Made by a program: the position numbers and the translations under genes. 62,126 nt of DNA from positions 1-62,126 of the forward strand of contig JAGGYH010000098.1 in assembly GCA_021162615.1 (NCBI GenBank), written 5' to 3'. Positions 56,747 to 60,811 of the stretch are shown here, in pieces. The DNA is from Candidatus Aminicenantes bacterium (lineage in GTDB: Bacteria > Acidobacteriota > Aminicenantia > Aminicenantales > Aminicenantaceae). The notes below the pieces were generated by a model. It was not told the DNA's origin. It saw only the letters and a program-made list of their open reading frames with translations, and did no database searches. Each line of letters starts with the position of its first letter. Position 1 is the first letter of the stretch.

Positions 56747-57485
56747 TCAGATTTTGTTGACGGGATTGATGGGTTTTTTCCCTGAGAGAACGTGAACCAG
56801 GTTTTTAGCCGCCATCATGGACATTTGAGCCCGTGTTTCAAAGCTTGCGCTTCCTATATGAGGCAGCAAAACCACATTGTCGAGAGACAGCAGTCTTTCT
56901 TCAATTTCAGGCTCGTTCTCGTAAACGTCTAAACCCGCTCCCCAAAGGTTTCCCTTTTCCAGAGCTTCGGCCAGTGCTTTTTCTTCGACTACAGGGCCGC
57001 GGGATACGTTCACCAGGATAGCCTGTTTTTTCATCAGGTGGATGTTTTCCCTTCAGATCTTTCCCCAGAAAAAGGTCAAGCTCCCAGTTCTTATATTTTT
57101 TTTGCCTGGTGAACCGGTCGGCCTGGGGAATTTTCCTTGCCACGGAGAGAATAAGAGCCCAGGCCAGGTCAGCTGTGGTGTCTGTTAGTACTCCGGGAGT
57201 GTTTGTGACAGTGATCCCTTTGGAAGCAGCATAAGAAACGTCTATGTTGTTGTATCCGACAGCGCAGTTGGCGATTATTTTTAAATCAGGGGCTGCATCG
57301 ATAACCTCTTTATCGATTTGATCGACCAGCAGGGACACAAGTCCTTGTTTGTCTTTAATTCCGGATATGATTTCTTTTTTTGTGGGATAATTATCTGTGC
57401 CTGCCACCTGAAAACGGATATGTTTTTTCAGGTATTCCATGGCTTCAGGGAGAAGTTTTTTTGTGAGTAAAGCGTTCGCTTTCAT
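56747..57485 (-). pseudogene. D-2-hydroxyacid dehydrogenase (glyoxylate reductase-like) with internal deletion and frameshift
   Basis: The N-part (AVGYNNID, TNTPGVLT, GKDLKGK) and C-part (NVSRG, GLDVYENEP, PHIGSA) are in different frames. The GxGxxG NAD-binding region is missing. Confidence 0.8.
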
Positions 57486-57496
57486 GTCAGTCTCTC

Positions 57497-58198
57497 CTAT
57501 TGCAGAAAAGGGTAAAAAATTTCTTTGATCTTATTATCGAATTTTATTTTTGTAAAACCGGTTTTATGAAAAGCAGGGTTCACAATATCCGATACCACCA
57601 TGACAGCCGCCGCCTTTACTTGGTAATATTCAGCAAGGGCGAACACGGATGATGTTTCCATATCTACTAATTCGATATTTTTTGTTTGCTTGTCTGTAAG
57701 CCATTCCTTTGTTTCCTTATACGGGGCATCCGTGGTAACTATGGAAGCTGTTTTAAGGACAGAGTTGTTTGATTTAAGCTTTTCCCTTATTTCCTCGGAT
57801 AAATCTTCAGAAGAAAAGAATTCGCTTTTAAAAGGGATGTAATGTGAAGAGGTTCCTTCTTCGGACAGAGCTTTTTTTACTATGAACGAATCAAAAAGAT
57901 TTATGTCTTTTGTGAGTCCTCCGCAAAATCCCAAAACAAGGATTTCATTGATACCGGAACATATGAGAGGCTCTATGACCAAAACCGAAGCAGGTGCTCC
58001 GATCCCTCCCAAGAGGACAACTTTGTTCTTGAATATGTAAAGATGTGAAAACAGAAAGTTTTGTTTTTTTGCGGCATTTTTTTCTAAATGTGTTTTTATG
58101 ACCTTGCTTGGAGTATCAGCAGGAATAAAGACAGCTCTCCGGCAGTTTAGAGGCTTTATTTCAGGCGGCTTCACAAGGGATGATGTGTTTTTCTGCAT
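57497..58198 (-). CDS. PNP/UDP-family nucleoside phosphorylase
   Basis: GIGAP, LGFCGGL, EEGTSSHY, TTDAPYKET, VDMETS, VSD. ATG 58198 with GAGGGAG RBS. Confidence 0.82.
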   Translation of the reverse strand: MQKNTSSLVKPPEIKPLNCRRAVFIPADTPSKVIKTHLEKNAAKKQNFLFSHLYIFKNKVVLLGGIGAPASVLVIEPLICSGINEILVLGFCGGLTKDINLFDSFIVKKALSEEGTSSHYIPFKSEFFSSEDLSEEIREKLKSNNSVLKTASIVTTDAPYKETKEWLTDKQTKNIELVDMETSSVFALAEYYQVKAAAVMVVSDIVNPAFHKTGFTKIKFDNKIKEIFYPFLQ

Positions 58199-58243
58199 CA
58201 GAATTTTCTCCCTCAAAATAACAAAAACAAGGCGAATAGTAAA

Positions 58244-58267
58244 ATGAAATTCAGGTATGGCTTGTGC
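58244..58267 (+). repeat. Element B left-end fragment
   Basis: ATGAAATTCAGGTATGGCTTGTGC. Confidence 0.6.
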
Positions 58268-58296
58268 GCAGTGATGGAATGGATTAGAATTGCAGT

Positions 58297-59262
58297 ATGA
58301 CAAACATGAAGTTTACCCAGATAGACACAGGCACAATCAATACAAAGGAGAGAAGATTCCAGATTTCACCTTATTTCTCTGTAGATTCTCTCGTCCTTTC
58401 CATTAAAAAAACAGGATTATTGAATCCGCCTGTCATAACAAAAAGGGAAGAAAAACATGTTATTGTTTCAGGCTGGAGAAGAATATTTGCCTGCAGAGAA
58501 CTATCGATCCCTTCTATCCCTGTGTTTGTTATGGATGAGACAAAAGACCTTGAAGCGTTTAAAGTCCCTGTTTTTGAGAATTTATCCATAAGGGATTACA
58601 CACAGATCGAAAAAGCCGCAGTTATAAGAAAACTTGATGGCTTTGGCGAGTCTCCGGAGAACATCATTCAAAGATATCTGCCTCTTTTAAAGGCCCCTCC
58701 CACGCGGGAGGTTATGGATGCTTATATTAAGATCGACCGGCTCAATGAAAATATAAAGGAAACAGCCCATAATAAAAAGTGGCCGTTTGCAACCTTAGAG
58801 CTCATGACAGAATGGACTGAAAGAGAAAGGCAGGGCCTTTTTCCGTTTGTAAAAGAATTGAGTCTTAACAAGCAAAAAGAGCTGATAGAAAACCTTTTTG
58901 AAGTTTCCAGAAAAAAAGGTATTTCCGTTCAAAGCATATTAAGCTCCGGAGAGTTTGCAAAGGTGCAGAAAGACATCAGCCTTTCTCCAATGCAAAAAGC
59001 GGAAAAAATCCGCTTGTTAGCAAGAACGCAGAGATATCCTTCCCTCAGCTCATGGAAAGAAGCGTTTGAAAAGGTCAGTGAGAATCTGAACCTTCCTGAG
59101 GAGATAGCTGTGATCCCTTCAAAGTTTTTTGAGGATGAGGTCATTTCAATACGATTGAATGTCAAAAATAAAAAAGAATTAGAAAAATACGCTGATAAAC
59201 TCAAAGAGCTGTCTTCAAAAAAAGAAATTTCTCTTCTTTTTAATCCATTCTCTCATGATTAA
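58297..59262 (+). CDS. ParB/Srx N-terminal domain protein
   Basis: SIKKTGLLNPPVI box and IVSGWRR arginine patch, followed by a helical region. Confidence 0.75.
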   Translation: MTNMKFTQIDTGTINTKERRFQISPYFSVDSLVLSIKKTGLLNPPVITKREEKHVIVSGWRRIFACRELSIPSIPVFVMDETKDLEAFKVPVFENLSIRDYTQIEKAAVIRKLDGFGESPENIIQRYLPLLKAPPTREVMDAYIKIDRLNENIKETAHNKKWPFATLELMTEWTERERQGLFPFVKELSLNKQKELIENLFEVSRKKGISVQSILSSGEFAKVQKDISLSPMQKAEKIRLLARTQRYPSLSSWKEAFEKVSENLNLPEEIAVIPSKFFEDEVISIRLNVKNKKELEKYADKLKELSSKKEISLLFNPFSHD

Positions 59263-60370
59263 GCCGCACACTCAAATCAAAAAGGTCTTCATTGAAAAAG
59301 GAAGCCTCCAGTATCCTCTTGCCCAAAAAGTGTTGAAAAACTTAGGCCCTGTTCCCGTAGAGATAATAAATGATGAGGAGGAAGTTATTGAAAAGTATAA
59401 CCTGCTTAAAGATCCTGTCGGAGAGGGGAAAAAAGCTCTTCTGTTAAAGCCGTTGAAAGGCGATTTCATTAAACCCTGTCCGTGCACTCCTCATTACCTT
59501 GGATGCAATTATTACATAATAAACACAGACCTGAATTGTCCCATGGATTGTACTTACTGTATCCTGCAGCACTATCTTGATAATCCTGTGATGGTATCAC
59601 ACGTCAACACAAATGACCTATGGGAACAGCTGGATCGGTTTCTGTACCAGCACAGGAGCCGGTTTATTCGCATTGGGACAGGGGAGTTGGGTGATTCGCT
59701 GGCCCTGGATGATATCACAGAGCGTTCCAAAGAGTTTATTGCCTATTTCAGAGAAAAGACCAGGGTGAATTTCGAACTTAAAACGAAGACTATAAATACA
59801 GACAACATCCTCTGTGAGAAACCGGCTGATAACATCATCATTGCATGGTCACTCAACACAGAACTTATGGCGAAGAAAGAAGAAAAGGGTGCTCCTGCGG
59901 TTAAAGACAGGATCGAGGCCGCATATGAAGTGCAGAAAAAAGGCTTTAGAGTCGCCTTTCACTTTGACCCGTTGATTTTATATAGGGGATGGGAGCAGGA
60001 TTACAGGGATATTATAGACAGGCTGTTTTCCAGGATAGATCCGTCCGGGATAGCCTGGATAAGCATAGGGTCGCTGCGGTTTCCCAAACCGCTTAAAACC
60101 CTGATCAGAAAGAGGTTCCCTTTGAGTCAAATAATCTACGAAGAGATGGTGGGGGGAAAGGACGGCAAGTTAAGATATTTCAAGCCGATGCGGCTAAAGC
60201 TGTATCAGGATATAGTCAGAGATATCCGTTCCTGTGGCGGGAAAGGAGTGCCGCTTTATTTTTGTATGGAGAGTAATGAAATATGGAGGAAGATACTCAA
60301 TAAAGAACCTGGGAGTAAAGAGGAAGTCGAAGCCTTCCTTTCTTTACTCCCAAGATTTAAAGCAACTTAA
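59255..60370 (+). CDS. Spore photoproduct lyase-like radical SAM protein
   Basis: CPMDCTYC, ELKTK, WSLN, RIEAA, FHFDP, KLRYF, LYFCME. Confidence 0.8.
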   Translation: MIKPHTQIKKVFIEKGSLQYPLAQKVLKNLGPVPVEIINDEEEVIEKYNLLKDPVGEGKKALLLKPLKGDFIKPCPCTPHYLGCNYYIINTDLNCPMDCTYCILQHYLDNPVMVSHVNTNDLWEQLDRFLYQHRSRFIRIGTGELGDSLALDDITERSKEFIAYFREKTRVNFELKTKTINTDNILCEKPADNIIIAWSLNTELMAKKEEKGAPAVKDRIEAAYEVQKKGFRVAFHFDPLILYRGWEQDYRDIIDRLFSRIDPSGIAWISIGSLRFPKPLKTLIRKRFPLSQIIYEEMVGGKDGKLRYFKPMRLKLYQDIVRDIRSCGGKGVPLYFCMESNEIWRKILNKEPGSKEEVEAFLSLLPRFKAT

Positions 60371-60382
60371 ACATATGCTTGA

Positions 60383-60811
60383 TTATTTGATTGTCTCTGC
60401 TTTTTTATCAGTGATAATTCCGATATCCTCTACGCCGGCATTTTTCATTGTTCCGATGAGCTCAACGATGTTTCCGAAATCTAGATCCTGGTCTGCCTTT
60501 AAATAGAGTTTTTTGTCAGTAGCCTGCATCAAAGCGTCTTCCAAGAGGATTTGGAGTGGGTTTCTATCATCAACTTTTTGGTCATTAACGAACAATGTGC
60601 CGTCTTTTTTTATGTAGAGAATGACATCAGGATTATCAGGCATTTCTATTGTGTTTGAGGCGACAGGAAGCTTTAGATCAACGCCTTGTTGGACCAGAGG
60701 GGTTACGACCATGAAAATAATCAATAGAACAAGCAGCACATCACAAAGAGGGACAACATTAGGTTCAGCATTGACAGCTTCTTTCTTCATTTTAAGAGCT
60801 TTAAGACCCAT
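60383..60811 (-). CDS. exbD: ExbD/TolR biopolymer transport protein
   Basis: NVVPLCDVLLVLLIIFMV, LKADQ. Confidence 0.88.
   Translation of the reverse strand: MGLKALKMKKEAVNAEPNVVPLCDVLLVLLIIFMVVTPLVQQGVDLKLPVASNTIEMPDNPDVILYIKKDGTLFVNDQKVDDRNPLQILLEDALMQATDKKLYLKADQDLDFGNIVELIGTMKNAGVEDIGIITDKKAETIK

Follow-up and report, generated by a model that had tools for sequence, protein, structure and literature searches.

We examined a 62,126-nt stretch of DNA from a Candidatus Aminicenantes bacterium (GenBank assembly GCA_021162615.1, contig JAGGYH010000098.1, positions 1 to 62,126), hereafter the window, and focused on two overlapping genes on its forward strand that encode a ParB-like protein and a radical S-adenosylmethionine (SAM) enzyme with the fold of spore photoproduct lyase (SPL). 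The two genes are a conserved functional unit, paired beyond chance, and they probably belong to an undescribed modification pathway rather than to spore-type repair. An earlier note, made from the sequence alone, had reported that the genes overlap by 8 bp, and this was borne out at the junction (...CAT GAT TAA), where the ATG of the enzyme gene lies at 59255 and the TAA of the ParB-like gene at 59260-59262. The nearest named homologues come from Candidatus Aminicenantes and Acidobacteriota. The features on which the following account relies are listed here.

58297..59262, forward strand: ParB-like partner gene, 321 aa (open reading frame list)
58471..58482, forward strand: box II of the partner, G59-W60-R61-R62 (SGWRRIFA), the GERR equivalent, aligned to GERR/GARR of Myxococcus xanthus ParB chains
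58852..59061, forward strand: constant partner module, residues 186-255 (LSLNKQKEL...RYPSL), from family profile matches
59255..60370, forward strand: SPL-fold radical SAM gene, 371 aa (open reading frame list)
59477..59506, forward strand: Cys-rich loop C75-P-C77...C84, KPCPCTPHYLGC, aligned to the Ser76-Ser79 loop of SPL
59537..59560, forward strand: radical SAM motif C95-x3-C99-x2-C102, with Tyr101 kept and Ile103 at the position of B. subtilis Tyr99 (alignments)
59669..59695, forward strand: RIGTGELGD, with Glu144 in the column of the SPL Cys141/Cys140 (alignments)
60263..60265, forward strand: Cys337 in a Y-x-C-M-E motif, the fourth conserved non-cluster Cys (family alignment)
57497..58303, reverse strand: nucleosidase/phosphorylase-like gene of the PNP_UDP_1 (NP-I) family (Pfam PNP_UDP_1, 91.9 bits)

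The enzyme passed the Pfam SPL family threshold (PF20903, 102.5 bits against a cut-off of 27). Its AlphaFold2 (AF2) model was confident (predicted local distance difference test, pLDDT, 94.4), and Foldseek aligned that model with SPL chain 4fhe over its full length (350 columns, E 5e-23, TM 0.78/0.85, root-mean-square deviation 2.9 A), with the next fold at E 1e-5; sequence identity to SPL was ~21%. At E <= 1e-30 the family numbers 492 cluster representatives, and its members come from many phyla of anaerobes that do not sporulate and are mostly uncultured.

Residue comparisons used phmmer, a 50-sequence profile, hmmsearch, and MAFFT addition to a 151-sequence family alignment, from which all residue counts for the enzyme were taken. 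The SPL references were chains from G. thermodenitrificans (Gt) and SplB translated from B. velezensis and C. botulinum plasmid records, and Cys141, Tyr99, and Tyr97 of B. subtilis SPL (Bs) equal Cys140, Tyr98, and Tyr96 in Gt numbering. The earlier note had stated that Tyr99(Bs) is replaced by Ile and Cys141(Bs) by Glu; both exchanges appeared in the HMMER and MAFFT alignments, as Ile103 and Glu144. In phmmer, CPMDCTYCIL stood opposite CMGHCHYCYL and RIGTGELGD opposite RFEAA(C140)TSD. Across the family, the C140(Gt) column held Glu in 148/151 members, and the Y98(Gt) column held Ile in 62, Phe in 44, Tyr in 29, and Val in 11. The cluster motif CxxxCxxC was kept in 149-150 of 151 sequences and the Tyr97(Bs) column (Tyr101 of the window enzyme) was Tyr in 149, while the SAM-binding columns were nearly constant (K174 and R273 in 151/151; S195 as Ser in 144 and Thr in 7).

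The claim that the enzyme lacks the SPL relay residues stands only in part, because the two positions have indeed changed but clostridial SPLs also lack Cys140. In those enzymes, the Ser76 position, which lies 4.2 A from the 3' thymidine, holds a conserved Cys (Benjdia et al. 2012, PMC3467042). Since C75 (147/151) coincides with this clostridial Cys in both HMMER alignments and lies one column off in MAFFT, at or next to the proposed donor, loss of the H donor in the enzyme family is not established by these alignments. Replacement of the residues that hold the substrate is a stronger argument against spore photoproduct (SP) repair than loss of the relay. The side chains that hold the 5'-dihydrothymine of SP in SPL are R193, E268, and Y339 (PMC3467042). 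In our family, the first of these columns was Ser in 100, Ala in 34, and Gly in 17 members, the second was Ser in 151/151, and the third had no conserved counterpart.

A clostridial-type SPL retained in a non-sporulating bacterium would account for the absence of Cys at 140, for the Cys at or next to Ser76, and for the kept Tyr96(Gt) and SAM-binding residues. However, this explanation is hardly credible, given that all three SP-binding residues are replaced, that Tyr98 is Tyr in only 29/151 members, and that the score against the SplB equivalog TIGR04070 was 116.5 bits where 400 are required. Host and locus point the same way. Neither small acid-soluble spore protein (SASP, PF00269) nor Spo0A_C (PF08769) had a match in the window's genome (G000, 92.9% complete), although a B. 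subtilis control was positive for both, and no splA-like gene was found at the locus, where the gene upstream of the enzyme is the ParB-like gene instead. The dedicated partner, the glycosyltransferase, and the four-Cys site described below are also without counterpart in SPL. With TonB and ExbBD genes present, the earlier description of the host as a non-sporulating diderm is upheld, as is its view that the pair is not an SP repair system. Judged from its residues, the enzyme is very unlikely to repair SP.

The note had further listed CxxxCxxC plus three extra N-terminal Cys. We recovered these (C95/C99/C102; C75, C77, and C84 in the loop), but the three loop Cys are not loose extras; together with C337, they form a four-Cys pattern in which C77 and C83 replace each other. 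Outside the cluster, Cys was kept at C75 in 147/151, at C84 in 148/151, and at C337 in 150/151 sequences, and Y335, M338, and E339 were as conserved as C337. By comparison, C77 was Cys in 52/151 and C83 in 99/151. Among the 146/151 members that carry C75, C84, and C337, 94 had only C83, 47 had only C77, 4 had both, and 1 had neither. Because the fourth ligand moves while the Cys count stays at four, C75, C84, and C337 with either C77 or C83 probably form a tetra-Cys metal site with a swapping fourth ligand, and the alignment suggests that these residues would cluster in space. By alignment, the loop of C75/C77/C84 is the one that contacts the 3' thymine in SPL (contact from PMC3467042), and the four-Cys site would lie beside the substrate pocket. 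If C75 is a metal ligand, then it would not be the H donor, so that these two readings of the residue compete.

Retention of the SPL fold, of a beta-hairpin, and of a Cys at or next to the clostridial donor position might alternatively indicate direct reversal of a lesion other than SP (e.g., a dihydropyrimidine or another intra- or inter-strand cross-link), with the ParB-like protein scanning DNA and the four-Cys site accepting the electron instead of the Cys-Tyr relay. SplB-like genes of other lineages do lie beside repair genes (PMC3765255, PMC4929162), and the enzyme gene is single-copy and chromosomal, as such a role would allow. Still, the hairpin of the enzyme model (strands 298-300 and 305-308) is shorter than that of SPL, the Tyr305(SPL) column is a gap in 150/151 members, and no SOS or repair genes were seen beside 80 surveyed loci. 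Moreover, lesion reversal needs neither a glycosyltransferase nor a nucleosidase, yet a glycosyltransferase co-occurs with the enzyme almost perfectly (below). We give this explanation little credence.

The partner exceeded the Pfam ParB_N cut-off only over residues 28-96 (30.7 bits, cut-off 26.3) and fell under every NCBIfam ParB/Noc/RepB cut-off. It comprises a ParB/Srx N domain (residues ~1-100), a helical DNA-binding-like domain of the ParB type (~100-220), followed by a C-terminal region that bears RYP and FE motifs. In Foldseek, the top matches of its AF2 model (pLDDT 93.4) were ParB/Noc structures with CDP or CTPgammaS bound (E 1.7e-7, ~200 columns), and the E93A and Q52A mutant structures were among the matches. 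VIA returned PadC (Z 12.0, residues 1-100), pNOB8 ParB-N (Z 11.9, 1-216), Spo0J (Z 9.7, 28-199), and the KorB DNA-binding domain (DBD; Z 6.3, 88-206). By both methods, ParB/Noc/KorB structures aligned with the N domain and the helical DBD together, over ~160-240 positions. By contrast, Srx, SerK, and SbnI aligned only over a core of ~75-110 positions (VIA Z 11.3 over 84 residues, 9.0 over 79, and 8.7 over 75, respectively; Foldseek E 3e-3 to 0.1). The note had offered an enzymatic Srx/SerK-like fold as one of two options, and this difference in coverage makes it the weaker one. Residues ~250-321 were without a VIA match, although that part was barely tested by VIA.

The reported GxRR patch is present as GWRR at residues 59-62, but its second position departs from ParB. 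In an alignment of 41 diverse ParB-like partners (A2, also used as a profile), box II held Gly in 37/41, then Phe in 19, Trp in 12, Ile in 4, Tyr in 3, and Leu in 3, then Arg in 20, Lys in 17, and His in 4, and finally Arg in 38/41. The W60 column aligns with E93 of M. xanthus ParB, and it was acidic in 0/41 members. The Glu of GERR serves CTP hydrolysis in ParB. The note's other option was a CTP-dependent sliding clamp that would deliver the enzyme to DNA; with no acidic residue here in any family member, it is doubtful, as far as the alignment can tell, that these proteins run an ordinary CTPase cycle. Most members nevertheless keep an ENL-type box III along with GxRR. In four loci (L045, L046, L062, and L065; three labelled Neomarinimicrobiota and one Lentisphaeria), VGNIH replaces SGxRR in the partner and the C-terminal half is kept.

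The A2 profile matched the ~100-aa N-terminal extensions of many stand-alone enzymes (P0261, P0286, P0338, P0346, P0295, and others), as well as the linker between the nucleosidase-like and radical SAM domains of two fusion proteins (P0298 and P0300). These matches had E values of 1e-12 to 1e-14 and always fell at profile positions ~180-275, equal to window residues ~186-255. One 705-aa protein (P0297) is a full ParB-like::enzyme fusion that matched profile positions 11-317 (E 4.7e-48; E 1e-11 against the window partner by BLASTP) and kept GWRR. The constant companion of the enzyme is thus a ~70-residue module. Atlas look-alikes of partner residues 180-321 were hypothetical proteins of 130-162 aa (score 0.94-0.95).

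The pair, whose conservation the note had proposed to survey, recurred in other genomes at two scales. In an order-level set of 61 genomes (G000 plus 60 relatives of its order), the enzyme was found in 47, although in 3 of them a contig end leaves no more than a fragment of it. Full-length ParB-like genes were present in 44/61 genomes and lay directly upstream of the enzyme on the same strand in 43 of these 44; in the remaining genome (G031), partner and enzyme are on separate contigs. In the 14 genomes that lack the enzyme, the only matches were to the N domain of canonical ParB. Carriers and non-carriers were mixed within families f1, f3, f7, and f9, while f4 and f5 were without carriers. 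We also surveyed 80 cross-phylum loci, with labels including Aminicenantes, Thermodesulfobacteriota, Aerophobetes, Zixibacteria, Sumerlaeota, Neomarinimicrobiota, Binatia, Nitrospinaceae, Omnitrophota, Planctomycetota, and others. A partner lay upstream on the same strand in 55/80 loci, as a protein with the N domain in 50 and as the module only in 5 (2 of them cut by a contig end). Another 5 enzyme genes were too near a contig end to judge, and 20 had no partner match within 600 nt. The enzyme gene is single-copy and chromosomal.

Several irregular gene forms turned up in these surveys. The enzyme gene was in two overlapping frames in two genomes (G045:C27:37983-39012, and L108 4109-5106 from G114), possibly through frameshifts or sequencing errors. 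A 781-aa protein on a single 2.8-kb contig (P0386) joins MnmE-type TrmE_N and MMR_HSR1 domains to a domain of the SPL family, which shares 41% identity with the window enzyme; the protein may be a gene-calling read-through. It was the sole protein (MnmE::SPL-like) found in a search for longer fused forms, which is too thin to use.

The system extends beyond the two proteins that the note had proposed. A family 2 glycosyltransferase (GT2, ~280 aa, PF00535) lay within 4 kb of the enzyme in 27/80 loci, often in the order GT2-partner-enzyme on one strand. In G000 itself, the GT2 orthologue is on another contig (C59:20742-21605; 51% identity to the GT2 of locus L085). In the order-level set, where GT2 is not linked to the pair, GT2 and enzyme were both present in 45 genomes, the enzyme only in 2, GT2 only in 0, and neither in 14 (total 61). 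In a wider phylum sample, in which both genes were called at E <= 1e-50, the corresponding numbers were 30, 13, 2, and 156 (total 201; "both" is 29 without G108, flagged as unpublished). We give no P value for this co-occurrence because relatives are not independent. The two order-level genomes with the enzyme only, G031 and G033, are 82% and 80% complete, and the per-family counts of enzyme and GT2 were equal in 8/9 families, with 35 and 33 of 36 in f1. In the phylum sample, the enzyme is of an N-truncated type from family f12 in 5 of the 13 genomes without GT2, and G114, counted as one of the two with GT2 only, does have an enzyme gene, frameshifted and immediately following GT2. In several closed genomes (e.g., G168, G144, G202, and G240), GT2 and the enzyme lie megabases apart.

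The second companion is the PNP_UDP_1 (purine nucleoside phosphorylase, PNP, family) gene that is divergent from the pair in the window. As judged from the sequence and the match ranges of more distant relatives, its true start is likely the ATG at 58198, which would leave a 98-nt spacer to the ParB-like gene. Its nearest solved chains are DeoD-type PNP, uridine phosphorylase (UP), MTAP, AMP nucleosidase, and MTAN (E 1e-10 to 1e-4), with which its MET and SD motifs align; these nearest solved relatives are hexameric NP-I enzymes of several specificities. It fell under every NCBIfam equivalog cut-off. An orthologue was present in 36/61 genomes, all 36 of which carry the enzyme, and PNP_UDP_1 is fused to the radical SAM domain in P0298 and P0300. 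GT2 and, in some lineages, the PNP-family enzyme therefore belong to the same unit as the pair.

These companions bring in a rival explanation, in which the enzyme, in small-molecule, lipid, or glycoconjugate synthesis, attaches the 5'-deoxyadenosyl radical to an unsaturated substrate, the PNP-family enzyme removes adenine, GT2 extends the product, and the ParB-like protein serves off DNA as an adaptor that binds a nucleotide or the substrate. In the HpnH/HpnG/HpnI and MqnE/MqnB pathways, an adenosylating radical SAM enzyme works with a PNP-family nucleosidase, and HpnI is a GT2. The same radical SAM + PNP_UDP_1 + GT2 trio recurs here, with all four genes (enzyme, partner, GT2, and PNP-like) in one strand run at locus L061, and the PNP::enzyme fusions suggest that the nucleosidase acts on the enzyme's own product. 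The acidic and polar pocket residues, the housekeeping context without mobile copies found, and the dispensability of the ParB N domain in part of the family (below) would fit as well. Weak matches of the PNP-like protein to HpnG (TIGR03468, 27.2 bits) and of GT2 to HpnB (TIGR03469, 36 and 28 bits) and the arsenosugar glycosyltransferase TIGR04283 point in the same direction, but all are far under their cut-offs (187.1 bits for HpnG and 379 for HpnB). Furthermore, the enzyme's sole close fold relative is a DNA enzyme, the partner matches the ParB family over both its N domain and its DBD, PNP-like genes adjoin the pair in only 14/80 loci, and no lipid or quinone gene was consistently linked among the loci surveyed. 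This alternative is the main rival, but on balance we consider it unlikely.

Genes other than GT2 and the PNP-like gene also recur near the enzyme. A short-chain dehydrogenase/reductase (SDR, adh_short) gene follows it on the same strand in eight loci (L042, L047, L051, L055, L056, L063, L085, and L087), which are labelled Thermodesulfobacteriota, delta-proteobacterial, or unclassified. A metallo-beta-lactamase (MBL)-fold gene follows it in L031 and L032, and both SDR and MBL-fold genes also come after a sister enzyme in Fusobacterium. These may be further pathway members or may reflect lineage synteny. In L092 and L094 (Desulfobulbaceae and Electrothrix labels), genes for a PTPS/QueD-like protein, a small QueE-like radical SAM protein, and UDP-glucose dehydrogenase precede a partner-less enzyme. 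Within L097 6596-9121 (contig C59), the G000 GT2 is closely packed on one strand, 1 nt away from a LEA_2-domain gene and overlapping a nitroreductase-family gene by 4 nt, and an AbiEii/AbiEi toxin-antitoxin-type gene pair lies ~3.5 kb from it (L097 12135-13754, contig C59).

Modification of an RNA base (tRNA or rRNA), with the module as an RNA-binding adaptor, would suit a housekeeping, single-copy, vertically inherited module. It would also suit the position of the G000 GT2 near CCA-adding enzyme and Sua5/YciO genes, the single MnmE::enzyme protein (781 aa), and the QueD and QueE genes upstream in two Desulfobulbaceae loci. However, each of these links was seen only once or twice, the MnmE fusion comes from one short contig, no RNA-binding domain was detected, and the fold relatives act on DNA. 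We regard an RNA substrate as quite improbable.

Taken together, we tentatively favor a reading in which a conserved, multi-gene radical pathway has these two genes as its core, consumes SAM, and is directed at DNA, where the substrate that it modifies would most likely be a pyrimidine; it leads our list, although it may well prove wrong. The ParB-like protein would bind nucleotide through the kept GxRR arginines and hydrolyze it poorly, given the change from Glu to a mostly aromatic residue. It would sit on DNA and dock the enzyme through the ~70-residue module. The enzyme, without the Cys140-Tyr98 relay, would spend SAM as a co-substrate, and its four-Cys site, which probably holds a second Fe-S cluster, could bind or oxidize the substrate radical or donate to it. 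GT2 would then add a sugar, and the PNP-family enzyme would clear 5'-deoxyadenosine or strip an adenosylated intermediate of its adenine. In B. subtilis SPL, one SAM is consumed per turnover when Cys141 is changed to Ala or Tyr99 to Phe (C141A and Y99F; PMC3742179), and on that basis an enzyme without the relay should release or incorporate 5'-deoxyadenosine; a fused nucleosidase fits either outcome.

We ranked DNA-directed modification first on the precedents of SPL, phage M6 gp53, DpdB, and Nre-linked SplB. Both characterized SPL-fold enzymes, SPL and gp53, place a radical at the thymine C5-methylene in DNA (PMC8989533), and SplB-like enzymes have been described in SOS-linked neighborhoods (Aravind and co-workers, PMC3765255). 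A more specific version seems doubtful to us, namely housekeeping, chromosome-wide DNA base hypermodification, in which a hydrolysis-poor ParB-type switch would place a two-cluster SPL-fold enzyme on the DNA of anaerobes. A pyrimidine would be attacked there, possibly by 5'-deoxyadenosyl addition, with the PNP-family enzyme trimming the product and GT2 glycosylating it. If true, the result would be a sugar-bearing base made by no known system and not tied to restriction.

Considerable evidence also weighs against a DNA-directed pathway. The combination of GT2 with a PNP-family enzyme fits small-molecule pathways equally well, and the near-invariant pocket residues (E144, E174, H236, D238, and E339) are acidic or polar and would suit a sugar or metal too. 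Part of the family can dispense with the ParB N domain, with 3/80 loci having a true module-only partner and 20/80 no match within 600 nt, so a DNA clamp cannot be essential to the chemistry. The partners of L045, L046, L062, and L065 score low over the N domain, and the marinimicrobial copies have lost GxRR. VIA matches to the DBD alone were middling (Z 6.0-6.3). The middle region of the ParB-like family (residues 121-185) is not basic (median pI 6.3), and overall the family's pI and charge are mildly basic at most, which does not separate the hypotheses. A palindrome/parS search of 57400-60500 gave nothing convincing, only three imperfect AT-rich 13-nt pairs, and did not extend to genome-wide sites. 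Housekeeping genes surround the pair, neither restriction nor defence genes were seen nearby, and collections of 50,697 phage and 72,556 plasmid records yielded no close homologue, all of which is unlike known DNA-hypermodification systems. The distant matches were two at 27-28% identity in unannotated phage records, and the plasmid collection held 37 records with true splB or "SPL family" genes. Finally, the wider neighborhood was syntenic in 15/15 retrieved loci of the order, so adjacency of the pair is partly inherited and adds little alone.

In the window, the genes upstream of the pair encode an M50 peptidase, GcpE/IspG, a split 2-hydroxyacid dehydrogenase, and the divergent PNP_UDP_1 protein (by Pfam), and those downstream encode ExbD, ExbB, and TonB_C proteins. 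As the note had claimed, no parA lies beside the pair (0 among the nine flanking genes), and the two canonical-ParB-like matches of G000 are on other contigs. The 2-hydroxyacid dehydrogenase gene (56747-57485, reverse strand) is in two overlapping frames, 56907-57485 and 56747-57034. Relative to 13 related loci, ~230 nt are absent between its matched parts, and the match of the C-terminal piece to the NAD-binding domain profile begins at position 118 out of 178. A deletion, decay to a pseudogene, or an error in the assembly could each account for this.

Our searches also returned sister subfamilies of SPL-like proteins. The culturable oral bacterium Fusobacterium vincentii (NZ_CP084075.1) encodes a 623-aa protein (L100 1876-3747) whose C-terminal SPL-like domain scored 197.8 bits against our family profile, without the RIGTGE motif and without a match to the partner module. 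It is followed on the same strand by genes for an SDR, an MBL-fold protein, a uracil-DNA glycosylase (UDG)-superfamily protein, and 5-formyltetrahydrofolate (5-FTHF) cyclo-ligase. Its ~290-aa N-terminal part had no Pfam match; it had looked PNP-like by eye, but this gained no support from Pfam, from a PNP profile, or from BLASTP comparison with the PNP portions of P0298 and P0300. In other Acidobacteriota, sister proteins carry N-terminal extensions of 320-440 aa (L102 2621-4837, L104 2442-4415, and L105 1341-3389), again without a Pfam match. At L104, the GT2 orthologue overlaps the start of the sister-subfamily gene.

SPL has long been treated as a one-off, the DNA-touching radical SAM enzyme of spores only. 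The family described here has the SPL scaffold with a new pocket, a probable second metal site, a partner module, and GT2/PNP companions. We found no published description of a ParB-like partner or of a GT2/PNP link for an SPL-family enzyme, in searches that lacked most subscription journals. The substrate of the family could reveal new nucleic-acid modification or repair chemistry, or a third "adenosylation" pathway. With either outcome, a widespread protein of the ParB fold would gain a role other than chromosome segregation. Direct handles for experiments are offered by Glu144, the swap within the four-Cys site, the box II aromatic residue, and the 70-residue module.

Among known systems, SplB (TIGR04070; 4FHC-4FHG, 4K9R, 4RH0) is the closest in fold. 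The enzyme shares with it CxxxCxxC, Tyr96(Gt), K174, S195, and R273, and with clostridial SPL the absence of Cys at 140 and a Cys in the Ser76 loop. It differs from SplB in its low identity (~21%), in Glu at Cys140 and mostly Ile, Phe, or Val at Tyr98, in a replaced SP-binding triad, and in a shorter hairpin. The extra four-Cys site, the partner module, the GT2/PNP link, and a host without sporulation genes set it further apart. The ParB-like protein resembles the ParB/Noc/KorB clamps (6SDK, 7BNK, 7NFU, 8QA8) in the fold of its N domain and helical DBD, in GxRR, and, in most members, in an ENL-type box III. Unlike them, it has no ParA neighbor and no recognizable parS at the locus, the Glu of GERR is replaced by Phe, Trp, Ile, Tyr, or Leu, and its C-terminal half is family-specific and common to the radical SAM enzymes. 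The HpnH/HpnG/HpnI and MqnE/MqnB pathways share the radical SAM, PNP_UDP_1, and GT2 gene-family trio. However, the enzyme here is of the SPL family, its companions match HpnG and HpnB only weakly, and the Hpn and Mqn pathways have no counterpart of the ParB-like protein.

Three further systems were compared through their published descriptions. Phage M6 gp53, a radical SAM N-alpha-glycinylthymidine isomerase acting in DNA (Lee et al. 2021, PMC8989533), is likewise SPL-like, and it serves to modify DNA rather than to repair it, within a multi-enzyme base-hypermodification pathway. By contrast with our pair, it is phage-encoded beside genes for a 5-hydroxymethyldeoxyuridine (5-hmdU) kinase, an amino-acid transferase, and a pyridoxal phosphate (PLP)-dependent decarboxylase, with no ParB-like, GT2, or PNP partner in the available excerpt. 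In the DpdA/DpdB system of 7-deazaguanine DNA modification, a ParB-superfamily protein with an NTPase fold is also the required partner of a DNA-modifying enzyme (PMC10164549). DpdB, however, has a DGQQR motif, robust ATPase activity, a transglycosylase partner, and a place in a restriction-modification island (PMC10164549), while in the window system the acidic catalytic residue of box II is absent and restriction genes are not linked. Finally, archaeal SplB-like genes lie beside nreA/nreB, which encode Nre proteins that bind proliferating cell nuclear antigen (PCNA). Their partner differs in being Nre with a PCNA-interacting protein (PIP) motif, and the excerpt of PMC4929162 reports no GT2/PNP link. 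The likeness lies in their non-sporulating hosts and in a partner that is tied to a DNA clamp (PMC4929162).

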